From: a virus | Reading direction: 5' to 3' (one strand) | DNA: 33,289 nucleotides | Virus genome (UHGV): UHGV-0088025 | Shown: piece after piece, positions 1-33,289 of the stretch | Layout: the number at the start of each line of letters is the position of its first letter | Numbering within the stretch: position 1 is the first letter of the stretch | Position numbers and translations under genes: made by a program | Notes under the pieces: generated by a model | Told to the model about the DNA's origin: nothing | What the model saw: the letters and a program-made list of their open reading frames with translations, nothing else | The model's database searches: none

Positions 1-1318
1 CATAACGGGAATCAAAGTTACCGTAATCTGAGGGATTAACACGACCTGTAATATTTATGGTTTTATTACTTTGAATACTGCCGGAGACAAAGCGCATAAC
101 ATGGACGTTATTAGCATAAACATCCAGATACCCGTCGCCATTTTGTTTAAATCCCGTGTCATTATCACCCAAAACAATCGAGTTACCACCAAGAGCACTG
201 GATGTTCCGATGCCCAGTGCACCATTCAATTGACCGCCAGATAATGACAACGCCCCAACCTCAGCAGCAGTCGGTTTAATGTGCGAACTGTAAATTACAT
301 ATACAGTTCCATCTGTCAGGCCTGTTGGTTTATTCGCTGTATAAGTTGGTGATGTATGAATCGTTACACTGGCGTTACTGGTATAATCCCACTGAATATT
401 AACACCTGTGGCGTAATTACCTATTTCTACATAAATGTCATAGGTATCACCTGATGTATTCACCCATGCAAAATTAGTAAATCCAATCGAGGTCCGTCGC
501 CATAATGCACCAGTAATACCTTTTGGATTCCCATTTCCGGCACGCAGAACCAGCTCAGAGATGCCTGCTTGATGCGAGGAGCCAACGTTATACCCTGCGC
601 CACCAATCAGGCTTATGTAAACCACGGAACTGGCTTGTGGCATTGTTACAGTTGCCAGTTTGAACCATCCAGCACCACCACTAAAAGACATGGTTGTTGA
701 ATTTGTTGTGCCGATATTACGCAGGAATAGTTTTTTATCGGGAATATCTGCACCGTTCTGGTTTTTCTGTAATGCACCAGAAGCCTGATTTACCGTTTCC
801 TGTAAACCAAGGTTTTGGATAAACAGCGGCTTATTGGGAATATCTGCTCCGTTCCGGTCTTTTGCCAGACGGGCATTGGCATTATCCATCGCAATTTTCA
901 CCGCTTTTGCGGTGGCTGCCAGCGTTTCACTGGGGCTGTCAGTGGCACTGGTTAGCTGAACGAGGCCTTTTTTGTTCAGGCTGGCATCCCAGATATCCAG
1001 ATTTTCACGTGCTGTACGCTGTGCTGATGCCCCGGCAATTTTAATTTCGCTGAGGTTATTTTTTATCAGCAGCGCGTTATTGCTCATAATGGCTTTAATG
1101 GACAGTGCAAGCTGGTTTAATTTTGTTTTATCCGGTTGAATACCGGCTTCTTTCAGCGTGTTTAATAACTCCGCCTGCACAATATTAAACCAGTCCATGC
1201 CGGGCCATGTGATAGCATTATTCCCGTCACCTTCTGAAAACCAGCGAACGATAGCACTACGCTGGGCGGATACGGGCGGCATGACGGTTACGCCGCTGTC
1301 GTTATCAATATAAAACAT
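1..1318 (-). CDS. S: Tail fibre protein S, N-terminal constant part plus G-segment variable part; 3' end beyond window edge
   Basis: ATG at 1316-1318 overlapping the R stop (TAATG). Manual translation MFYIDNDSGVTVMPPVSAQRSAIVRWFSEGDGNNAITWPGMDWFNIVQAELL... is open to position 1; Gly/Ser/Asn-rich C-terminal fibre-like sequence; contains the gix site. Confidence 0.85.
   Translation of the reverse strand, partial: MFYIDNDSGVTVMPPVSAQRSAIVRWFSEGDGNNAITWPGMDWFNIVQAELLNTLKEAGIQPDKTKLNQLALSIKAIMSNNALLIKNNLSEIKIAGASAQRTARENLDIWDASLNKKGLVQLTSATDSPSETLAATAKAVKIAMDNANARLAKDRNGADIPNKPLFIQNLGLQETVNQASGALQKNQNGADIPDKKLFLRNIGTTNSTTMSFSGGAGWFKLATVTMPQASSVVYISLIGGAGYNVGSSHQAGISELVLRAGNGNPKGITGALWRRTSIGFTNFAWVNTSGDTYDIYVEIGNYATGVNIQWDYTSNASVTIHTSPTYTANKPTGLTDGTVYVIYSSHIKPTAAEVGALSLSGGQLNGALGIGTSSALGGNSIVLGDNDTGFKQNGDGYLDVYANNVHVMRFVSGSIQSNKTINITGRVNPSDYGNFDSRY
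797..822. other. gix: gix crossover site for Gin invertase (left boundary of invertible G segment)
   Basis: TTCCTGTAAACC-AA-GGTTTTGGATAA: imperfect 12-bp inverted half-sites around a 2-bp core, near-identical to Mu gix/Salmonella hix consensus as recalled; located inside the S reading frame as in Mu. Confidence 0.85.
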
Positions 1319-22997: not shown

Positions 22998-23360
22998 TTA
23001 CCCGAACAGACGAGCGCGAAAACGAAAGGAGAGCCAGAACGTCAGCAATCCGGCCAGCGCCCAGATGACATACTCAGGACCCGTTTTCAGTTGAGACGTT
23101 GCCATCACGGCTAATCCCAGCCCGGACAGCCCCCCCAGCCAGGTCAGAGGCCAGACGAACCGGGCAAAATGTTCAGGCACCCGGCAGCTCATTATCAGCG
23201 CATCCAGATAATCACCGGCAACACATAAAGCAACACTGAAAACCGAGGCACAGCAAAACATCAGCGCGCGCCAGCCACAAAACAGACTTATCCACAATAA
23301 CAGCGCCAGTAATACCACCGATAAAAAATCAGGCCACTGACGAGCAGAACGCTCAGACAT
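22998..23360 (-). CDS. Multi-pass membrane protein of the middle operon
   Basis: Start placed at ATG 23358-23360 (MSERSARQWPDF...) with GGGAGAA upstream; 3-4 hydrophobic helices. Confidence 0.6.
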   Translation of the reverse strand: MSERSARQWPDFLSVVLLALLLWISLFCGWRALMFCCASVFSVALCVAGDYLDALIMSCRVPEHFARFVWPLTWLGGLSGLGLAVMATSQLKTGPEYVIWALAGLLTFWLSFRFRARLFG

Positions 23361-23571
23361 AATGTTTCTCCCTGTAAAGCAGGCAATGATGAAGAATTTC
23401 CGGCATATCAACTGACTGCCAGCCTTTCATGTAATAACTGCCGTGGGTGCCATCATGACCGGTATAGTCGCGGGGCGCAGGACGTGGCCCACCGGCGACA
23501 CGGCGCAAAACCTCCTGACGCAGCCGCTCACGTCTGCCAAGATGAAAGGATGCATTCCAGCCTTTACCCAT
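23353..23571 (-). CDS. Hypothetical protein, first ORF downstream of mor
   Basis: 72-aa ORF; 8-nt overlap with the following membrane ORF; weak composition evidence. Confidence 0.45.
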   Translation of the reverse strand: MGKGWNASFHLGRRERLRQEVLRRVAGGPRPAPRDYTGHDGTHGSYYMKGWQSVDMPEILHHCLLYREKHYV

Positions 23572-23622
23572 GATGATTTTCCCCGGTACGGTTATTCATC
23601 ACAGGATATTGAGGACGTAAAA

Positions 23623-23643
23623 AAAGCCGGATTAACCGGCTTT
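23623..23643 (-). terminator. Rho-independent terminator immediately downstream of mor (matches Mu early-transcript terminator t9.2)
   Basis: AAAGCCGG-TTAAT-CCGGCTTT followed by a T-run (7 T in total on the transcribed strand); ~9.29 kb from the phage left end. Confidence 0.7.
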
Positions 23644-23648
23644 ACTGT

Positions 23649-24038
23649 TTACAGAAGTGAGGGCTGGTACTGGCGGTATTTCAGCCGTCGCATCCGGCGA
23701 ATGGCCTTGTAAACCGTATTGAAAGTGACACCATAACGGGTGGTCAGTTCGCTGACGTTGCGACCGTTAAAATCATTCCAGATACGCAAATCCCGAATCA
23801 GCGAGTCCAGAACCTGACCGCGTGGAATGTAGACCTGACCGCCGCCCAGATGCTTACAGATAGCCACAACAATCTCCAGTGAATGGGCAGGATCAACACC
23901 CAGCCGGGACAATTCCCCGCGTAGTAAATCGTTCAGCTCCGCCAGCAGTGCCGGAAAGCGTGACGTATCCTCTGCGGGATTGTCAAGATGTGCCAGGATG
24001 GTGTCATCCTGCAAATCACCAAATAAATCTTCCGTCAT
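23649..24038 (-). CDS. mor: Middle operon regulator Mor
   Basis: 129-aa ORF, same size as Mu Mor; paralogous to C in this window. Confidence 0.88.
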   Translation of the reverse strand: MTEDLFGDLQDDTILAHLDNPAEDTSRFPALLAELNDLLRGELSRLGVDPAHSLEIVVAICKHLGGGQVYIPRGQVLDSLIRDLRIWNDFNGRNVSELTTRYGVTFNTVYKAIRRMRRLKYRQYQPSLL

Positions 24039-24586
24039 TGTGCCATCCTCCGCGTCTTTCTGGCATGGGCATAAGCCGCCGTCATGGCATCATAGCCGCG
24101 CAGTTCACGACCGGACGGACTGACCGGCAATGGAAGCCCGTGACGGGAAAAGGCTTCACGAATACAGCGGATGTGCCACTGCTTGAGTGTTTCGAGGACT
24201 GTCAGCAGCGTGTCGCCATGACACCACGCCAGTGTGGAAACGCCCTGTCCGCCGTTGCGTTTCGCGGTCAGGCGCTGAACATATTTATCCAGCGCCACAT
24301 CACCGCCATCGGTAATAAAACCGTCTTCTGCCATCTGCTGCCAGACTTTGTACACCTTCTCGCGGGGCGTGACATGTTCCTTAAAGCGGCGACGTGGATG
24401 TTTATTCAGCTTCTTAAAGCCGCGTTCTTTCATTGCATCGAGCGTCTGTTCCAGTTGCGTAACCGTCAGCTCGCGGCAACTGGTTTTGCCCGTTTTCTGC
24501 ATCAGAAAGGCGCGGTAAGTGTCATCGTCGAGTTGTAGCTCCCGACGGGCGACATGGATTAATTTAATAAGCGATGTGCGATTCAT
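24035..24586 (-). CDS. gemA: GemA-like early protein
   Basis: Track ORF extends to 24754; start placed at ATG 24584-24586 (MNRTSLIKLIHVARR...) with GAGGTGA upstream, giving 183 aa as in Mu GemA; 4-nt overlap with mor. Confidence 0.8.
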   Translation of the reverse strand: MNRTSLIKLIHVARRELQLDDDTYRAFLMQKTGKTSCRELTVTQLEQTLDAMKERGFKKLNKHPRRRFKEHVTPREKVYKVWQQMAEDGFITDGGDVALDKYVQRLTAKRNGGQGVSTLAWCHGDTLLTVLETLKQWHIRCIREAFSRHGLPLPVSPSGRELRGYDAMTAAYAHARKTRRMAQ

Positions 24587-24616
24587 TTGCTCACCTCTCA
24601 TATTAAGGAATGAGAT

Positions 24617-25033
24617 ATGAAAATTGATTATGACGAGATAGCCAGAATATTTGATGTTTTTCTGGAGGCCGACACCGCATTCATTCGACTGGAAGATGTC
24701 GGCTGGGAGCGTTCTCAGCGGCACAGCGACAGCCATCAGAAGCTGGTTTTCCATCTTCTGTTGCTGGTTGAAAATGGTTTTATCAGCAACAGATATCTGG
24801 AAACAGGCACCGCAAAAAGCATTGGTCTCACCCCAACAAGCCTCGGATATTCATATTCAGGCACCAGTGTCAGACTTACACAAGATGGTCATGATTTTGC
24901 GAAAGCACTACATCAAAAACCCATTCTTGAGCGCATAAAACAGGACCTTGCCGACGCCCCGATGACGCTCGTAACAGACGTCGGCAAACAGTGGTTAACC
25001 TCGTTTCTTAAAAAGAAACTCGGGATTGAATAG
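24617..25033 (+). CDS. Hypothetical protein encoded antisense to the early operon (candidate moron)
   Basis: 138-aa ORF, the only long ORF in a ~400-bp stretch lacking a - strand gene; AAGGA 8 nt upstream of ATG; divergent from gemA (starts 31 bp apart); lower GC at its 5' end. Confidence 0.55.
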   Translation: MKIDYDEIARIFDVFLEADTAFIRLEDVGWERSQRHSDSHQKLVFHLLLLVENGFISNRYLETGTAKSIGLTPTSLGYSYSGTSVRLTQDGHDFAKALHQKPILERIKQDLADAPMTLVTDVGKQWLTSFLKKKLGIE

Positions 25034-25306
25034 TTCCCGGTTCATACGTTGCAGCACATCAAGGGCGGCGACAGCCGCCACTTTATCGTTACCATCAGCA
25101 ATAGTGCGGAGATTTTCAATAATCCAGTGAGGACTCAGTGACTCAGCAATAATGCCAAACCGGTACGCCATGACTTCATCAATAGCTTTTTCATGAGACG
25201 GCTCATATACAAAATTCACAAAGTCATGCACTTCTTTTTTCGGCAAACCACCGGCAATCAGCAGGGCGGCAAGCTCTTCTGATTTTGAAAATACACCATT
25301 ATTCAT
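24995..25306 (-). CDS. Hypothetical early protein
   Basis: Start placed at ATG 25304-25306 (MNNGVFSK...) with AAGGTGAG upstream, coupled to the upstream stop. Confidence 0.6.
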   Translation of the reverse strand: MNNGVFSKSEELAALLIAGGLPKKEVHDFVNFVYEPSHEKAIDEVMAYRFGIIAESLSPHWIIENLRTIADGNDKVAAVAALDVLQRMNRELFNPEFLFKKRG

Positions 25307-25307
25307 A

Positions 25308-26003
25308 TCACTCACCTTCACAATTCATGCACGCCGTGTCATCGCCCATATCGCAGTGGTTGCATTTCTGCCCACCACAATGAGGGCACTCTTTCAGATA
25401 TTCAGGGTTTTCATTACCGCAGGTCGGGCATTCCTGTTTCACCGTGGTGAATGTCCCCAGCCACGAATACGAATTTTCACCGACTGTCTTTTTCCCCGTT
25501 ATTTCTGAATCAGAACTAATACAGTGTTTTTCAACCCATGCCACACGTGCTGAATTCAGGTGGCATCTGGCCAATTTGCTTTCGTTTCTGTAATGTTTGC
25601 TGTCCCGGTTAAATGGCAATTTCTCATTCAGCCCTGCTGAGATAAAGTCCGCATGTAATTGTTCTAATGCGGCTTCACTGTCTGCACCGGTTGATTCAAA
25701 ATAATCGTAAGCATTGGCACATAATCCGGCAGCCCGGGTAAATACATCATCGCCCGTCTCCATTGCCCCATTCTTTAACCATCGGTTGTAGGCTGTATAA
25801 AAACTATAAAGTTGCTTTCTGATACAGGTAGTGGCAGTTCCGCCATTAACTGACGCTGGCGTAACATAGCCAGCTCTGCATAAAGCAGAACGAAGTATAT
25901 CCAGAACCTGCCAGGCATCTTCTCCTTCAATCACGCTACAGTTTTTGTACACCAGGACGTCCCGGCCACAACTTTTATCAATACCCCAGTCTTCAAATTT
26001 CAC
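25308..26003 (-). CDS. Early protein with C-terminal Cys-rich zinc-ribbon cluster
   Basis: Probable GTG start at 26001-26003 with GGAGG upstream; C-terminus CPTCG...CPHCG...CNHC...CMNC. Confidence 0.65.
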   Translation of the reverse strand: MKFEDWGIDKSCGRDVLVYKNCSVIEGEDAWQVLDILRSALCRAGYVTPASVNGGTATTCIRKQLYSFYTAYNRWLKNGAMETGDDVFTRAAGLCANAYDYFESTGADSEAALEQLHADFISAGLNEKLPFNRDSKHYRNESKLARCHLNSARVAWVEKHCISSDSEITGKKTVGENSYSWLGTFTTVKQECPTCGNENPEYLKECPHCGGQKCNHCDMGDDTACMNCEGE

Positions 26004-26532
26004 AACCAGCCTCCTGCACCACACCCGGTGCTGATGAAAAATCAATGATGAGATAACGCAGTACATGGTCGGTGATATTCCAGGCGCTGGAACTGCAAAT
26101 AAACCGCCCCAGCCGGATATCGATATAAGCCATCACAAAACGGGGCATTCCCTGTTTGCACATCTCGTCATCCACTTCTGCAACGATGTGAACGGACTCA
26201 CAGGTCAGTACGCCTGTCGCAAACTCTTTTGCCAGTGCGGGGATGGTATTACCTTCCACCCAGGGTAATGAGCGACGCCAGTTGCACCACACCGCATCAT
26301 CAACAGCAGGCTGCTCAGTTGCGTTTCGTCTTACCGGCGGCGTCTGACGCGGGCGCGGAACGTCATAAAATCCGTTGCATTCGGTGAGCACTCCGGCATC
26401 AACCGCATCACGCAGGAAATACACCATTGCGGAGGGTGGCATCTGCATTTTTTCAGCCAGAACCCCGCAGGTCAGGCGTCCGTAAGCCCGTAATAATGTG
26501 CTGACACCATTCAGAATTTTTGCATCAACCAT
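25993..26532 (-). CDS. Hypothetical early protein, possible winged-helix N-terminus
   Basis: 179-aa ORF, GAGGAA 7 nt upstream of ATG 26530-26532; immediately downstream of gam. Confidence 0.65.
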   Translation of the reverse strand: MVDAKILNGVSTLLRAYGRLTCGVLAEKMQMPPSAMVYFLRDAVDAGVLTECNGFYDVPRPRQTPPVRRNATEQPAVDDAVWCNWRRSLPWVEGNTIPALAKEFATGVLTCESVHIVAEVDDEMCKQGMPRFVMAYIDIRLGRFICSSSAWNITDHVLRYLIIDFSSAPGVVQEAGCEI

Positions 26533-26630
26533 GTTTTATTCCTCAGTAATCTGTTTCAGGCGCGAGCAATCCCCTGACGCATCGCGCCATAATTAAAAGA
26601 ATGTGAATTAATTAAATATTAATGGTGGTA

Positions 26631-27155
26631 TTAAATACCGGCTTCCTGTTCAAACGGAATAATGGAAAAATCTTCAATTCCCGATTTAACCGTAATTCCG
26701 GCAACACCTGCGACGGCTTTTGGTTCCAGTAAAATCGCCTCCTTGTTGATTTCCTGCTTCGTGCGAATAAAGCGTTGCAGGCCAAGACGCTCCAGCGTTT
26801 CCATCACTGCATCCATACCACGAATACTTACTGATGGTGGACGGACCCGCCACGATACATCACCGGTGACAAGATTCGCCGTCTTCACTTTGCCGCCGTT
26901 CGTCAGTTCGTCGCGGTTCGCTTCACACCATCCCTGAACGCCTTTTGAAAGGGTTTCAATATCGGTTTTAATCGGTGCAATCCGGGCCGCAAATTTCTCC
27001 GTAATTTCCGCGATGGCATCATTCATTTCCGTTTCCAGACGTGATGCTTCGCGCTGTAAATCCCCGATGCGTTTAATATCGGTAATCACCGCATCGCGGT
27101 TTTGTGGCACATAAGCCGCTGCGGCACTCTTGATACGTTTTGCTGGTTTAGCCAT
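26631..27155 (-). CDS. gam: Host-nuclease inhibitor Gam (Ku-like DNA end-binding protein)
   Basis: 174-aa ORF MAKPAKRIKSAAAAYVPQNRDAVITDIKRIGDLQREASRLETEMN...; matches Mu Gam in length and sequence as recalled. Confidence 0.92.
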   Translation of the reverse strand: MAKPAKRIKSAAAAYVPQNRDAVITDIKRIGDLQREASRLETEMNDAIAEITEKFAARIAPIKTDIETLSKGVQGWCEANRDELTNGGKVKTANLVTGDVSWRVRPPSVSIRGMDAVMETLERLGLQRFIRTKQEINKEAILLEPKAVAGVAGITVKSGIEDFSIIPFEQEAGI

Positions 27156-27174
27156 AAATTAAAGCTCCTGTTAA

Positions 27175-27474
27175 TTAATATCCGCTGTATACAATGCTGG
27201 ATACAGCTCGATTGCTTAATTCCATCTTTCGGGCAATGACATGAATATCCAGCCCTTCTTTATAAAGTTCACGACATAAATATTTGTCGTGTTCACTGAT
27301 TCGGTATACACACAATGATATTCCGTGCCTTCTGGCATGTGCCCGGAGGGCGGTTGTGGCGACTTTCAGTTTTTCCGCCATTTCTTCAACGGTCATTTTC
27401 CCGACGTTGGCTTCGATAAATTCCCGGTCTTCGCGTGACCAGCGCTTACGATTACACTTCATGTCAGCCACCAT
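27175..27474 (-). CDS. Small early protein with putative helix-turn-helix
   Basis: 99-aa ORF; MTVEEMAEKLKVATTALRAHARRHGISL resembles an HTH; basic. Confidence 0.65.
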   Translation of the reverse strand: MVADMKCNRKRWSREDREFIEANVGKMTVEEMAEKLKVATTALRAHARRHGISLCVYRISEHDKYLCRELYKEGLDIHVIARKMELSNRAVSSIVYSGY

Positions 27475-27894
27475 TCAGTACAGCAGAGGCTCGCGCAGTG
27501 ATGCCGGAATATGCCGCAGCGATAACTGAACCGCTTTCAGGGCAAGCGAGGAATAACAGCAGCGCGCCCAGCCTTTTGCCATTAACCGGTAATCGCGCCA
27601 GATACGCTGCCACATTTCACGGGCCTCAGGGTCTGATGCGCAGATGTATTCCCGGTCCATGACGTACTCCCATAAATCCACGTTGAACGCACCGCCAAAT
27701 GCAATGGCGCGGGATATGCTTTCGCCGCAATAACGCGCACAAATGCTGTAATGGTCGAAAGCAATCAGGTAAGTCTTTTCACCACAATCATCAACTTTCC
27801 GGGCGCAAATAAACTCGCGTAATTCACCACCGTTGTTATTGCGTTCCTGAATTCGGATTAATGCCTGAATTTCATTTCGGATTTTGACGTTCAT
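27475..27894 (-). CDS. Hypothetical early protein (Cys-containing)
   Basis: 139-aa ORF in a tightly packed co-oriented gene string. Confidence 0.6.
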   Translation of the reverse strand: MNVKIRNEIQALIRIQERNNNGGELREFICARKVDDCGEKTYLIAFDHYSICARYCGESISRAIAFGGAFNVDLWEYVMDREYICASDPEAREMWQRIWRDYRLMAKGWARCCYSSLALKAVQLSLRHIPASLREPLLY

Positions 27895-27914
27895 TGTCAG
27901 CGTTCCTTTGCGAA

Positions 27915-28184
27915 TTAATGTCTGGCTGTATTCGGGTTATAGCTGAATAATTCCCCCTCGGCTTCCAGCCCAAGCTCCCTGGCTGATTTCAACAACTCCT
28001 CGGTCGCTTTTTTAATGATTTCAGGAGCCATGCTCTTGATGATGCCTGCCATTACATCATGTGGCCCGGTCTGGTCCTCAGGTGAGGATTCTTCCAGTCG
28101 CACATTCATATTTACGGCAAAACCTCCATTTTCCTGAAACTCAATATTTCTTGTATTGTTAAATTCAAAGATTACTTTTGCCAT
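27915..28184 (-). CDS. Hypothetical acidic early protein
   Basis: 89-aa ORF with AAGGAG upstream of ATG 28182-28184. Confidence 0.6.
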   Translation of the reverse strand: MAKVIFEFNNTRNIEFQENGGFAVNMNVRLEESSPEDQTGPHDVMAGIIKSMAPEIIKKATEELLKSARELGLEAEGELFSYNPNTARH

Positions 28185-28204
28185 TTTTCTTCTCCTTATT
28201 GATT

Positions 28205-28426
28205 CTAAATAACTGCGCTGGCTTTTACCTTCGCGCCTTTTACCTGCTTAAAGAAAACTGCGCTGCACCACGGACAACATGTCAGGGAATCCCAAATTTC
28301 CTTTTCGTGTGAGCATTGCGTCATAATCTGTTCACCGCATCCGGGGCATTTATATGTCGTCAGCGGCACCCCGTGGCACTGACAGTGTTTAACCCATTCA
28401 ATATATTTTTCAGCTTTAATACACAT
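28205..28426 (-). CDS. Small Cys-rich (zinc-ribbon-like) early protein
   Basis: Start moved to internal ATG (MCIKAEKYIEW...) with GGAG 7 nt upstream; CQCHG...CPGCG...CSHE...CCPWC motifs. Confidence 0.55.
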   Translation of the reverse strand: MCIKAEKYIEWVKHCQCHGVPLTTYKCPGCGEQIMTQCSHEKEIWDSLTCCPWCSAVFFKQVKGAKVKASAVI

Positions 28427-28428
28427 CG

Positions 28429-28656
28429 TTATCTCCAGATAATCTGACAACCATTAAGACGGGCCGTCCATACAGAACGGGCCACCCCGGACTTATGCTC
28501 CATAATCCTGACCGCGTTTTTTACCAGTTCCACCGGTGGGTAAGTGATTTCAAGAATCGGACGCGCCACGCCGAGATATGATTCATTTACATGACTCCCG
28601 CGCGCCTGTAACCAGTTCTGCGCATCCGTTGCCATTTTTATATTTCGGGCCATCAT
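28429..28656 (-). CDS. Small early protein, first gene after B (position of Mu kil)
   Basis: 75-aa ORF with GGAG upstream; identity assigned by position only. Confidence 0.5.
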
Positions 28657-28671
28657 AATTTCTTCTCCTTC

Positions 28672-29610
28672 TTAATTACGCAGCAGCGTTGAAATATCAA
28701 CGTCCAGGTCTAATTCACGGAAAGCCTGACGCAGATAATCTTCGTTAACACGCTCACCTTTACCGTGAGCCGTCATGGCGGCAAGGCGAAGTGAATGATT
28801 CAGAATGCGAAGCGCACCTGGTTTCTGCGCAATCTGCTGTAATAACTCCAGTTCATTTTCGCCGTTAATCTGCCAGGCATCCGCAATAGCTTTTACATCG
28901 GCTTTTTTTGTTTTATTAATTGCAGTGCGCTTTGCAATACGGGAAAACAGACGGGCAAATTCAACCGTTCTGTTACCCCCCGTCATATTTGAATAAACCC
29001 GGTGATTTCCCATCAGCACAAGGCCAGTGCGGGTTGATTCCTGTAACAGGCGGAGTTCTTCCAGAACTTCGGCACCAAGATGATCAGCTTCGTCGATGAT
29101 AACCAGCCCCTGTGTACCTTCAAGGCGACGTCGCAGGGCACGGGAAAGTGGCCCTTTACGGCGTGGTGCGTCATTCATTCCCAGCTCAAACGCCAGTTCA
29201 GTAAGACATTCCAGAACACTGGCGCAGGATGGCGTAATGGTGATCATCCAGACATTGTTATTGGTGCGGCGATATTCACGGGCCGCTTCGGTTTTGCCCA
29301 CACCAGGATTGCCACATACAACAGCAATACTTTCAGTCAGGCTGGCAAAACGCATACTTGTCCAGATTTGTTTTACCGTCTGCGTTTCCACAAAGCGGGG
29401 CGGTTCAGGTAGTTCTGCAACTGCATGATATTTTTCCAGCCAGCGTTGCAGCATTTGTGAAACACGCTCGTTATCCCCGTTGTACTTATCATTGATAAAA
29501 CTACTGATAGTTCCGGTAGAAAGTCCGCTCTCAAGAGCAATTTGTTTAAAGGTGGTTTCTTCATTTTCTACAAGCGTGCGCAGTCCTGCGCGAATATCGG
29601 AAATATTCAT
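28672..29610 (-). CDS. B: Transposition target-DNA activator B (MuB, AAA+ ATPase)
   Basis: 312-aa ORF, same size as MuB; Walker A GNPGVGKT and Walker B VIIDEAD; directly downstream of the transposase gene. Confidence 0.95.
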   Translation of the reverse strand: MNISDIRAGLRTLVENEETTFKQIALESGLSTGTISSFINDKYNGDNERVSQMLQRWLEKYHAVAELPEPPRFVETQTVKQIWTSMRFASLTESIAVVCGNPGVGKTEAAREYRRTNNNVWMITITPSCASVLECLTELAFELGMNDAPRRKGPLSRALRRRLEGTQGLVIIDEADHLGAEVLEELRLLQESTRTGLVLMGNHRVYSNMTGGNRTVEFARLFSRIAKRTAINKTKKADVKAIADAWQINGENELELLQQIAQKPGALRILNHSLRLAAMTAHGKGERVNEDYLRQAFRELDLDVDISTLLRN

Positions 29611-29648
29611 CTGAATAACCTCGTAATTAAATTTTGTTTAAACGTTAA

Positions 29649-31637
29649 TTAAATGGCTTTTTTACGTCTGTTCTGTTCCAGAATATCCAGCGAATGATTC
29701 AGATATTCATCACGCTCAGTTTCGTATTCATCATCACGCTCCTGATTCTTCACCCGTTCCGTATTACCGGAAGGCCGGAAAATGCCGACAATTCGTGATT
29801 CTGGTGCTTCAGGTTCGGCTATCTGCGGCAGCAGCTCTGCCACTTCCAGTGCATCCATTTGTTTCTGTGCCTTAATCGCTGCTTTCGTCGCAGATTTCAG
29901 TTGTTTCTGGCGGCGGCGATATTCACGGCCTGCCGCAGCATCATTAAACGCAACAGGTGCCAGACATTCCGCTTCACAGATAAACCGACCGTCCAGGGTG
30001 TAACAATAAACCGTGCTGTGTAGCTGCTGCGGATCAAACCTGACCACAACTTTTTTCACGCCGGCATTCATTAATGCCATGTTGTAATAAACGTTTTTCG
30101 CGCCTTTAAGGGAGCCGCCAACTTTAAGCGTAAACTCGCCTTTGCGTGAAACGTTCACCGCCTCGGCAGGCAGTAACAGCATCCGTTTTTGTTCTTCGGT
30201 TGGCTTACGCACAATCGTTCTGGCGTATTCACGCTCGAAAACATCATCAAACGAGAGTTTGCCCCCGCACATTTCTGTTTCACGGCCTGTTCTGGCATTG
30301 AACATCGCCACACCTTCGGCAAGGTTTTTCAGAAACAGCTCTGCATCAACAGCGCGGTTGCCATAGTTATCAGGTTTTGCCTGCGGATTTGGCCCCGTAT
30401 ATGCGCCAGCCAGTGCCGGATGCTTATCAACGTATTCCTCAAGCCCACCAACACCGAAAGCACGTTCAACAGGTTTTGCCTGGCCCCAGCCTTTACCGGC
30501 AACAACGCTTGTCCAGTGCATTTTCGCACCCATCAGTAAAAACAATCCCTTTGGATCGTCTTCTTTCACCTTAAAGCGGTAGCGATTGGGCGCGCCTCCC
30601 GTCAGCCATTTATTCGCAGCACCACGGGTGTTATCAATGGTGATGTGAAAATCCTCCGGGATACCGTAGCGAGTCACAACATCCATGAACGAGAGGCGAA
30701 TTGAATCAATGTTCTCGCTCACATCGCAGCGCCAGCCCAGAATTTTTCGGGTTTTCACATCCTGCCAGAACCATGTTTTCGGGCGGATCACATCACCGTT
30801 AAACCAGCGTACAAAGACGTTATGCAGATAACCGTCGCCGTTGATCCACTGCATGGCGTCCAGGTGTTCCACAGTTCGCTGCTGTGCCGGTATCAGATGC
30901 ATCAGTGCATGTTCACCTTCACGACAGGCAACAACCATTGCCTCGTCCAGTTGCTGAATCCGGCGAAAGGCCGTGGCACGGGAGGGAATACTCCAGCCAT
31001 GCTCGCGGGCTGCCAGTTCCAGACGCTCATAACATTTGCGGAAGGCGGGTTTTTCCGGTCGCAGATAATCTGCAATCAGAAACTGCCAGGCATCCTCGTC
31101 AAATTCACTTTTGTGAACATTGCGACGGGATGCACCACGTCCATCAACAAGTGCAGCCGCCCAGTCAGGCTTCGCAAACTTCTGTACCTGGTAATACTTG
31201 TCCCGCAAAGTGGATGCGCTGACCTGGTAATGCCCTGCAACGGTCGCAAAAGCCGTTTTCGTTGAAATCCCCTGGTTCAGCATTTCGTCTGCAGCCTGAA
31301 CCGCAGGCAACCATTTTTCAGCAAGTCTGCGCTGGGAATCGCTGGCTTTATCCCATTTGCTCCACAGCACCTCACGATCATAATCATGGGCTTCCAGCGT
31401 GGGGCGGGCGATTTCAAAACGGCCCAGGCTTGTTTCAATTCTCCCTTGTTGCAACAGAATTTCAGCACGTAATGCGACAGGGAATGATTTGATATTGAAT
31501 TCAAATGATACACCTTTAGTCCCTGCAACCTGTCTGAACTCCCAGCCTTCTCTTTGTGCCTTACGTGTAATGTTAGTGGCTTGCTTTGGTAAACCTGCCA
31601 AACCGAGCAACTCTTTTGCTGTATACCATTCTTTCAT
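29649..31637 (-). CDS. A: DDE transposase A (MuA)
   Basis: 662-aa ORF; residues ~60-662 match Mu transposase as recalled; the N-terminal ~60 aa differ from prototype Mu and resemble the repressor N-terminus in this window. Confidence 0.97.
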
Positions 31638-31644
31638 AGCGCAC

Positions 31645-31866
31645 CTAGTATCGAGACGGCCAAATATCTTGCGGTGTCATTCCCAGTGCATCTGCAATGA
31701 TTTTCTCCGCTTTCGGATATCTCTTATCCAAAGCATTTTTTAATGTTGAAGACGAAAGATGATTAGATCTTCCCAATTCAGCTAGTGACATATTGCGTTT
31801 TCGTAGCTCTGCAACGATGTCAGCTCTGTGCCAATCTTGGCGGTTAGTTCTTTTATTCATATGCAT
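31645..31866 (-). CDS. ner: Ner, negative regulator of early transcription (D108-type)
   Basis: 73-aa ORF with ...[21 protein letters not shown]...IWPSRY; between operator and A as in Mu/D108. Confidence 0.88.
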
Positions 31867-32051
31867 TTCATGTAATCCTTTCAGATTCCCCCGCGAGCTA
31901 CGCTATAAAGTAGCTCACGGCATATCGTGCAATGTAGTGTGGAATCACTTTCAAATCAATAGTGATTTGAAAGGATTTGCCATGATTTCATATAACAGCA
32001 TGATTTTTATATGAATTTATTTTGTCTCTATTGAAATCACTAGGATTTTAA
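31867..32051. promoter_or_regulatory. Divergent operator/promoter region (Pe for ner-A-B on -, Pc for repressor on +); also expected transposition enhancer
   Basis: 185-bp gap between divergent ner and c starts. Dyad CACTTTCAAATCA-ATAG-TGATTTGAAAG (31946-31973), further GAAATCACT and CATGATTT repeats (31981-32045). Confidence 0.8.
31891..31920. promoter_or_regulatory. Putative Ner operator: two inverted 11-bp repeats separated by 8 bp
   Basis: CCGCGAGCTAC-GCTATAAA-GTAGCTCACGG; right arm is the reverse complement of CCGTGAGCTAC, which I recall as the D108 Ner site; ~25-55 bp upstream of ner start. Confidence 0.6.
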
Positions 32052-32576
32052 ATGATGTCTTTTGAAATCAAAGAATGGTTTAATGCGAAAGAGCTGGAAG
32101 GGATGCCTGGTGTACCAAAGTTGGCGACTAACATTACCAGGAAAGCTGTGGCGGAAGATTGGGTAAAACGTCAGCGTCACGGTGGGAAAGGTGTCGCTTA
32201 TGAGTATCACATCAACAGTCTGCCAGAAGAAACACGCAGGGCCATTAAAGGAGCCTCACTTTCTGATAAACCAGTGCATACATCAATCGCCCATACAGTT
32301 GATGAGAGGCTAATTTATGCAATGAGCTTCTTAACACCAGATGAGCAGGCCGCAGCTGTGGAGATCATTCGTGTGGCAGGGATTAAAGGACTTATGCCTA
32401 CAATTGTCAGTAAAGATAAGGCATTAGAGGCATTAGGGATTACTGTGGAGCAACAGAAAACCCTGCAAACTCTTCAGGCATTACCACCGGAAAAAGTGAG
32501 AGAGATTTTGTCTCAGTATGAAGGCAAAGAACATAATTTCCCTGTAAGAGAAAACGATGTAAAGAAAGCTGTATAA
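32052..32576 (+). CDS. c: Lysogeny repressor c (D108-type)
   Basis: 174-aa ORF transcribed toward the left end; N-terminus shares [24 protein letters not shown] with the transposase N-terminus in this window. Confidence 0.88.
   Translation: MMSFEIKEWFNAKELEGMPGVPKLATNITRKAVAEDWVKRQRHGGKGVAYEYHINSLPEETRRAIKGASLSDKPVHTSIAHTVDERLIYAMSFLTPDEQAAAVEIIRVAGIKGLMPTIVSKDKALEALGITVEQQKTLQTLQALPPEKVREILSQYEGKEHNFPVRENDVKKAV

Positions 32577-32743: not shown

Positions 32744-33289
<546 letters not shown>

Follow-up and report, generated by a model that had tools for sequence, protein, structure and literature searches.

What are the small, partly cysteine-rich proteins encoded at positions 25308–28656 of the virus genome UHGV-0088025, and what could they do for the phage? 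We followed up this block within the whole stretch of DNA that was analysed, hereafter the window (33,289 nucleotides, nt). Judged by its sequence, the block covers most of the semi-essential (SE) genes in the early operon of a transposable prophage of the Mu/D108 type. It appears ordinary save for one open reading frame (ORF), orf231, which fuses a widespread, unnamed eight-cysteine module, putatively zinc-binding, to new partner domains. A sequence-only reading had placed the block in the SE early region of a Mu-like phage and proposed host-takeover functions. Its observation was largely correct, with two errors: a second gene, kil, can also be given a name, and gp8 lacks CxxC motifs. Its interpretation restates the accepted status of the Mu SE region. 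As for function, we consider it likely that in this SE block of a Mu-type prophage the small products mostly bind host factors early, and the alternatives are weighed below where the evidence that bears on them is given.

Identity and coding status of the block

The DNA of the block is 96–98% identical to that of phages Mu and D108 over most of its length, with full synteny. The minus-strand order is A, B, kil, gp6, gp7 (D108 allele), gp8, gp9, gam, gp11, orf231, orf103, an antisense ORF on the plus strand, gemA, mor and a terminator-like site. The succession A–B–kil–...–gam–...–gemA–mor on one strand, closed by a terminator-like site after mor, is that of the Mu-type SE region. The backbone and the flanks are homologous to Mu, with protein identities of 92–100%, and the Pfam and PHROG family assignments are concordant. 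The genes inside the block are as follows.

28429–28656, minus strand: kil (Mu gp5), 75 amino acids; full-length match to phrog_2743 (E = 2.8e-43)
28205–28426, minus strand: gp6, 73 amino acids; 97% identical to Mu gp6; phrog_3786
27915–28184, minus strand: gp7, 89 amino acids; D108-type allele, 100% identical to D108 gp7
27475–27894, minus strand: gp8, 139 amino acids; orphan protein of enterobacterial Mu prophages, 96% identical to Mu gp8
27175–27474, minus strand: gp9, 99 amino acids; phrog_323 'transcriptional regulator' (E = 6.9e-29); 99% identical to Mu gp9
26631–27155, minus strand: gam (Mu gp10), Ku-like DNA-end-binding protein; PF07352 (E = 4.1e-42)
25993–26532, minus strand: gp11, 179 amino acids; PF25754 Gp11_C (E = 2.9e-39); 92.5% identical to Mu gp11
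25308–26003, minus strand: orf231, 231 amino acids; three-module fusion at the positions of Mu gp12 and gp13; full-length match to phrog_6418

The minus-strand ORFs listed by the sequence-only reading were all found at these coordinates, with starts that match Mu, D108 and the PGAP annotation. Its estimate of about ten small genes between B and gemA also held: we counted ten (nine on the minus strand and one ORF on the plus strand), eight of which lie inside 25308–28656. Gam had been taken for the only gene that can be named, which was wrong, since the product of 28429–28656 is 100% identical to Mu Kil.

The sequence has close relatives. DNA matches to the block were found in 14 phage records and in 92 of 5,426 complete E. 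coli genomes. Two IMG/VR contigs (L020 and L046) encode SE-region proteins that are 100% identical to the present ones; therefore, the SE sequence itself is not new. Aligned with Mu, the window gave a single long collinear match (window 784–24586 to Mu 31991–8233, 96.8%), and 26010–27909 and 28152–31449 matched at 96–98%. Five segments of the window had no Mu match (1–783, 24587–25296, 25473–26009, 27910–28151 and 31450–32555), and three of the five fall within the SE block.

Some of the small ORFs might be chance reading frames in a transcribed spacer rather than genes; they are short and lack a Pfam family, and gp8 has very few relatives. We therefore calculated the ratio of nonsynonymous to synonymous substitution rates (dN/dS) by the Nei–Gojobori method, using ungapped homologues of each ORF drawn from 84 related loci. 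Pooled dN/dS ranged from 0.09 (kil, gam) to 0.32 (the gp13 domain), with dS values of up to about 1.0–1.4 in the most diverged pairs. No stop-interrupted copy was present among up to 36 distinct relatives. Every gene in the block is under purifying selection. The starts agree with those annotated in Mu, in D108 and by PGAP, three independent annotations that concur, and the coupling of the genes is also common to them. Shine–Dalgarno (SD)-like sequences, read by eye, lie 5' of most starts, gp9 being the exception. The dN/dS analysis effectively refuted the chance-ORF explanation, to which we give next to no weight.

The orf231 fusion and the gp13-type domain

We regard orf231 as the one new feature of the block. 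It begins with a GTG codon behind an AGGAGG SD sequence, and its product has an isoelectric point (pI) of 5.2; PGAP called the same 696-nt coding sequence in E. coli OZ040490. Residues 1–60 (module 1) have no relatives beyond the fusion itself, residues 61–168 match phrog_2510, and residues 176–231 match phrog_5584 (E = 1.1e-38). The second and third modules map as follows.

25494–25823, minus strand: central helical domain of orf231, residues ~61–170 (module 2); free-standing (129–140 amino acids) in relatives
25311–25436, minus strand: gp13-type eight-cysteine domain of orf231, residues 190–231 (module 3)

Residues 178–231 are 94% identical to Mu gp13, and four CxxC pairs start at residues 192, 206, 214 and 225. 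In Mu, gp13 is a separate ORF of 60 amino acids with its own ATG, a GGAGG SD sequence 7 nt upstream and a 14-nt overlap with the end of gp12, whereas here the domain forms the C-terminus of a 231-residue protein. The orf231 DNA at 25473–26009 matches neither Mu nor D108, and Mu homology resumes a few codons into gp13. This position of the junction points to a cassette exchange at a gene boundary as the origin of the in-frame fusion. A programmed frameshift joining gp12 and gp13 in Mu was considered and rejected; Mu gp13 has its own ATG and GGAGG sequence, no slippery site was seen, and ordinary translational coupling suffices.

The fusion forms a single 90%-identity cluster in a large protein collection (P0001). 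Fourteen of the 5,426 complete E. coli genomes match at least 80% of the 3.7-kilobase (kb) query block, which is an upper bound for carriers of the fusion, as at least one of them (H17) has separate gp12 and gp13 genes.

The gp13-type domain is distributed far more broadly. An exhaustive HMMER search of 1.84 billion representative sequences with the last 60 residues of orf231 returned 85 proteins at E < 1e-3. Most of these relatives are 45–120 amino acids long with the domain at the C-terminus, and some reach 150–316 amino acids with unrelated N-termini. In a 61-sequence alignment, all eight cysteines, a glycine, a lysine, and the D and G of a DMGDD motif were each conserved in at least 90% of the members. 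The resulting signature, C-x2-C-G-x9-C-x2-C-x3-K-C-x2-C-D-M-G-D-D-x2-C-x2-C, is common to orf231 and 60 distant relatives. The AlphaFold2 model of the domain has a core confidence score (predicted local distance difference test, pLDDT) of 82–86. No Pfam family matches the domain. We take Mu gp13 (Mup13, phrog_5584) as the founding member of an unnamed, widespread family of eight-cysteine domains. The cysteine motifs are typical of structural zinc sites, and we infer a putative zinc module.

The domain is modular at its own locus: it is free in Mu, fused in orf231, and fused to a different N-terminus at the same slot of a divergent Mu-like prophage (P0012). We inspected the genomic context of six relatives in all. 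Besides P0012, two of them (P0041 and P0055) lie between ParA and a Dam methylase/DnaB, in what we read as an element resembling an integrative and conjugative element (ICE) or a plasmid. P0042 belongs to a prophage early operon, P0056 to a run of small unnamed ORFs on a phage-like contig, and P0043 to an uninformative 2.6-kb contig of unnamed ORFs.

Four metagenomic relatives of 150–167 amino acids (P0056, P0066, P0086 and P0119) appear, by eye, to have a common N-terminal module followed by the eight-cysteine domain. One member of the alignment matches Phage_ProQ_C_like, and the same family was recorded, weakly, for P0056. These matches hint at a possible link of gp13 fusions to RNA-binding modules.

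On this basis the 'CDMGDD' domain can be pictured as a widespread zinc module of mobile-element early genes that would dock on one conserved host target. Variable N-terminal partners, either fused (orf231, P0012, the ProQ_C-like fusions) or encoded just upstream (Mu gp12), would then give the specificities, and the proteins would be modular adaptors for host takeover or counter-defence. We offer this picture as a speculation of low probability.

Backbone, cassettes and neighbours of the early operon

The architecture of the block was derived from a slot map of 47 related loci and a presence/absence table. The block is a mosaic of a conserved backbone and exchangeable cassettes. The backbone consists of kil, gp9, gam, gp11, gemA and mor. 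Among the exchangeable positions, gp6 is present or absent, gp7 has several alleles, and gp8 is mostly present. An optional insert, named DUF5420 by PGAP, occurs in relatives between gam and gp11. The gp12 slot holds at least four unrelated modules across relatives or is empty, gp13 may be missing, free-standing or part of a fusion, the gp14 slot is filled by orf103, by gp14 or by both, and the antisense slot is exchangeable as well. The SfMu genome paper had described Mu gp12 and SfMu ORF11 as unrelated occupants of one position (PMC4406740). In Mu-like phages with a Gam 73–80% identical to this one, only kil, gam, gemA and mor survive, plus gp9 or gp11 in some; at 57–64% Gam identity, just gam and weak gemA matches are left.

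Two backbone members inside the block are characterised. By family, the product of kil is a Kil protein: phrog_2743 is annotated 'Kil protein for bacterial septation inhibition', the identity with Mu Kil is 100% over 74 amino acids, and PF26843 was recorded for the orthologue in a related locus (L085). Kil kills the host or blocks septation, that is host cell division, and is toxic. Gam scored 144.1 bits with PF07352 (gathering cutoff 28.3) and matches Mu Gam at 100% identity. The protein forms a Ku-like dimer on linear DNA ends, capping them against RecBCD. Mu Gam is described as a Ku-like end binder that shields linear DNA from RecBCD (PMC12407980, PMC3820752).

The divergent prophage that carries the P0012 fusion (locus L088, 2316–2954) had no Phage_Mu_Gam gene called. 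A DUF3164 protein of 212 amino acids stands there at the expected place of gam, upstream of the DUF5420 and gp11 homologues.

The other two backbone genes of the block, gp9 and gp11, encode its best-conserved uncharacterised proteins. The helix-turn-helix (HTH) proposed for 27175–27474 from the letters is supported at the family level by phrog_323. Several Pfam and NCBIfam HTH models match two separate segments of gp9 (residues ~9–53 and ~69–95), all below threshold, and within the second segment the pattern LCRELYKEGL.I..IA.KMELS is invariant down to 46% identity. A profile search of the PDB with gp9 gave nothing with E < 0.04. We consider gp9 a probable DNA-binding protein with two HTH-like segments. 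Three cysteines of gp11 (C22, C111 and C146) stay invariant in relatives as distant as 38% identity. To our eye, the first ~57 residues resemble a MarR-type winged helix, and the remainder is the Gp11_C domain; the sole PDB profile match was a MarR regulator on residues 9–53 (E = 1.4, not significant).

These two proteins raise the question of whether the uncharacterised genes serve the phage's own programme, with gp9, gp11 and the putative zinc proteins tuning transposition and replication, immunity, or the early-to-middle switch. Two phenotypes that map to the SE region, arm (amplified replication of Mu) and cim (control of immunity), would be examples of such a role. Both gp9 and gp11 have HTH-like segments and persist in some distant Mu-like phages at 35–48% identity, and the neighbours gemA and mor are regulators. 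However, the region is by definition dispensable for plaque formation, hence 'semi-essential' (PMC3820752), and gp6, gp8, the gp12 slot and the gp14 slot are present or absent among near-identical phages, which is hard to square with core regulation. We regard a phage-internal role as possible, if doubtful, and prefer the reading in which the products mostly bind host factors.

The sequence-only reading had claimed CxxC clusters for three products of the block. The claim stood for orf231, with its four CxxC pairs, and for gp6, which has nine cysteines, with CPGC at residue 27 and CPWC at residue 51. Only C27, C30, C51 and C54 (CPxC...CPxC) are kept in all ten gp6 alleles, including one at 35% identity, and the other five cysteines vary. 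The arrangement is that of a single putative zinc ribbon. Against curated zinc-ribbon models, gp6 stayed below threshold (FmdB zinc ribbon TIGR02605, 19 bits vs 31.3; NF047912, 13.9 vs 37). The gene is missing from many relatives.

The claim failed for gp8. This protein has seven cysteines and no CxxC motif; only C52 and C56 among them, plus H48, are conserved in the family, while C30, C37, C85, C112 and C113 vary. A zinc ribbon, which would call for CxxC pairs and four conserved metal ligands, is rejected. Among 5.8 billion proteins the family has only 24 clusters, and every one with an organism named in its source is enterobacterial; a PDB profile search with gp8 found no match.

The gp7 product has no cysteine and is acidic (pI 4.8), and the DNA of its region (27910–28151) is without a Mu match. 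By BLAST, just the first 11 amino acids align with Mu gp7. The gp7 alleles, that of Mu included, nevertheless align as a single family with invariant M1, A2, V4, A46, G72 and C-terminal His, and near-invariant K3, I5 and E7. An RraB-like regulator of RNase E (PF06877) was rejected as a chance match, with E = 0.0098 and 16.9 bits vs 23.3 in one of 12 family members; the PDB profile search was also without an RraB match.

Between gam and gp11 or gemA, some relatives (L028, L035, L050, L051, L054, L056 and L059) carry a cassette protein of ~85–107 amino acids with a long acidic tail (...VKDDEDDDDEE). This protein is absent from the window and has no Pfam match. A Pfam scan of ten other SE cassette families in relatives, among them Mu gp12, Mu gp14, the DUF5420 insert and the acidic-tail protein, gave no matches. 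A by-eye impression that one of these families is MazG-like was unsupported in the scan.

The variable slots could be specific counter-defence cassettes, comparable to accessory regions in other temperate phages, each allele (gp6, gp7, the gp12 slot with gp13, orf103/gp14) inhibiting one immune system. Alleles are replaced at fixed positions of an early operon, the products are small and some are acidic (gp7 and orf231), and the gp13 domain turns up again in unrelated mobile elements, within early or maintenance modules. A preprint on the Mu-like phage JBD30 reports that its homologues of Gam and GemA each license targeting by Gabija (PMC12407980). Because of this genetic interaction, the region can be said to interact with host immunity, at least as a trigger. 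Against such cassettes, Pfam and NCBIfam showed no homology to described anti-defence proteins, no structural match was found, and the RraB lead for gp7 failed. We judge one-to-one counter-defence rather unlikely, and the broader binding of host factors remains our preferred reading.

Beyond the block, the operon continues on both sides with the following features.

29649–31637, minus strand: A, from the ORF map
28672–29610, minus strand: B, upstream neighbour; MuB 99% identical to the Mu protein
24995–25306, minus strand: orf103, 103 amino acids, replacing or accompanying Mu gp14; phrog_1988 (E = 6e-52)
24617–25033, plus strand: antisense ORF, 138 amino acids, in the slot of the unrelated Mu gp15; phrog_585 (E = 3e-31)
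24035–24586, minus strand: gemA (Mu gp16), downstream boundary; 95.6% identical to Mu GemA, dN/dS 0.12
23649–24038, minus strand: mor, after gemA and before the terminator-like hairpin
23623–23643, minus strand: terminator-like hairpin after mor, at the position of the annotated rho-independent terminator of D108

Spacings between the genes range from −11 to +20 nt, except for a 98-nt gam–gp11 gap and a 408-nt orf103–gemA gap; among the nine genes and gemA, the latter is the sole gap above ~100 nt. The hairpin at 23643–23623 is the only minus-strand terminator-like site in 23400–29000 and is the probable end of the early operon. Because of the close spacing and the lack of an earlier minus-strand terminator-like site, the nine minus-strand genes from kil to orf103 are probably co-transcribed with A and B. 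An Rfam scan of 23000–29700 gave nothing but two sub-threshold chance matches.

The ATG of orf103 lies at 25306, one base past the orf231 stop, behind the SD sequence GAAGGTGAG. PGAP calls the same 103 amino acids, dN/dS is 0.21, and no similarity to Mu gp14 was found. The antisense ORF occupies the 408-nt orf103–gemA stretch and starts 30 nt from the gemA start, in divergent orientation. A 99%-identical protein (WP_000687312.1) is named 'DUF2513 domain-containing' by PGAP, but the Pfam score here is 15.9, below the cutoff of 29.6. Homologues at 59–62% identity sit in the same slot of four related loci (L028, L036, L037 and L051). The position suggests expression independent of the early operon, perhaps in the lysogen.

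It follows to ask whether part of the block benefits the lysogen, with low-level transcription from Pe/Pe* and the antisense ORF leading to lysogenic conversion or superinfection exclusion. Uninduced Mu lysogens show low-level early transcription across the SE genes, and a benefit to the host has been proposed (PMC3820752). The antisense ORF opposes early transcription, stands where Mu has the unrelated gp15 and shows conservation at the protein level. However, no promoter-like site was detected upstream of it, and PADLOC gave no defence match. Useful expression of Kil in lysogens is moreover unlikely given its toxicity. We consider a benefit to the lysogen improbable compared with early action on host factors during lytic growth.

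There were several side observations. The 98-nt gam–gp11 spacer contains a GC-rich hairpin (GGCGCGAUGCG...CGCGCC; 26559–26588, minus strand) that has no U-tract, and the spacer fold is more stable than that of shuffled sequence (z = −2.3). The hairpin might serve RNA stability or processing, or be the scar of a recombination; this is where relatives carry the extra gene called DUF5420 by PGAP. In Mu, the c repressor and ner immunity genes lie at the place of window 31450–32555; this segment did not match Mu DNA, and the immunity type therefore differs from that of Mu. In window 1–783, the divergence from Mu begins at about the G-segment boundary (Mu 31991). At the other end, 32916–33289 extends ~370 nt past the Mu left end, with only an 80% match to the last 360 nt of Mu. 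This sequence beyond the Mu end may be host flank, making the phage an integrated prophage.

Possible roles and comparison with known systems

Most SE genes are described as 'largely unknown' (PMC3820752). Most ORFs of the block have Mu orthologues, which are themselves uncharacterised and so do not refute the sequence-only reading, and our literature search found no function assigned to Mu gp6–gp9 or gp11–gp15. The uncharacterised products are small and show no detectable enzymatic domain, with putative HTH-like segments (gp9, gp11) or cysteine motifs of the structural-zinc type (gp6, orf231/gp13). Most likely they would bind host proteins or nucleic acids stoichiometrically, in the early lytic phase that follows induction or infection. 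Such binding would adjust host physiology and DNA-surveillance systems in favour of replicative transposition, and exchange at the cassette slots between phages would follow the variation of hosts and host defences. Both characterised members, the septation inhibitor Kil (per PHROG) and the end-protecting, Ku-like Gam, fit interference with the host, as does the frequent exchange of cassettes in the block.

Several results weigh against this proposal. Remote-homology and structure searches matched no known defence family or solved structure. Searches of Pfam, NCBIfam and PADLOC linked none of the uncharacterised products to known families of anti-defence proteins, toxins or host-factor binders. 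The 5,027 defence models of PADLOC-DB gave no credible match to the ten products, with two marginal ones for gp9 (E~0.01), and in Pfam the gathering score was reached by Gam and Gp11_C alone. Structure-based searches yielded no significant neighbour, and PDB searches (by profile for gp8, gp9 and gp11; by single sequence for gp11, orf231 and the antisense ORF) none with E < 0.04. In addition, gp9 and gp11 could regulate genes of the phage rather than those of the host. The pooled dN/dS values indicate purifying selection, not the strong diversifying selection often seen in arms-race genes; the diversity arises via cassette replacement. A host-takeover or anti-defence role of the uncharacterised ORFs is plausible but unproven, and textbooks have left the region at this point for decades.

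The functions of the SE genes have been mostly unknown since the region was mapped and sequenced, and the present analysis narrows this problem without solving it. It sets the backbone (kil, gp9, gam, gp11) apart from the exchangeable cassettes and removes two false leads, the zinc ribbon of gp8 and the RraB likeness of gp7. The new findings are modest: a fusion allele of the gp12 slot and gp13, and the recognition of gp13 as representing a widespread unnamed eight-cysteine family, whose relatives occur in prophage, phage-like and plasmid- or ICE-like contexts, repeatedly fused to different N-terminal modules. The gp12/gp13 slot is the most tractable entry point to the SE functions. If the cassettes were counter-defence genes, E. 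coli would offer, in its Mu-like prophages, new inhibitors from a compact source.

Compared with Mu (NC_000929, Mup05–Mup15) and D108 (NC_013594), the gene order, strand and operon context are alike, and gemA, mor and the terminator stand in the same succession. The Kil, gp6, gp8, gp9, Gam and gp11 proteins are 92–100% identical to those of Mu. The differences lie in three places: Mu gp12 is swapped for an unrelated N-terminal segment and a helical domain in frame with gp13, Mu gp14 for orf103, and Mu gp15 for the unrelated antisense ORF of 138 amino acids.

The four CxxC pairs in ~40 residues of the gp13-type domain recall cross-brace two-zinc fingers (RING, PHD, FYVE) and the CxxCxGxG domain of DnaJ. 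The spacing of pairs 1–3 fits the published PHD/RING pattern by our reading, whereas the last loop is shorter (seven residues) than in PHD fingers. The top Foldseek neighbours were non-significant and mostly PHD, RING, FYVE and GATA fingers and ribosomal zinc ribbons. Among the relatives of the domain, one matches Prok-RING_2 and one DnaJ_CXXCXGXG.

The pL early-left operon of phage lambda (kil, gam, ral, cIII) provides the closest parallel in layout of functions. It is early and dispensable, and encodes the division inhibitor Kil, the RecBCD antagonist Gam and other small proteins aimed at the host. Neither Ral nor cIII has a detected homologue in the present block. The two operons are functional analogues, not homologues: their proteins are related neither by sequence nor by mechanism. 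Whereas Mu Gam is a Ku-like end binder, the Gam of lambda binds RecBCD by mimicking DNA, a contrast drawn in PMC12407980.

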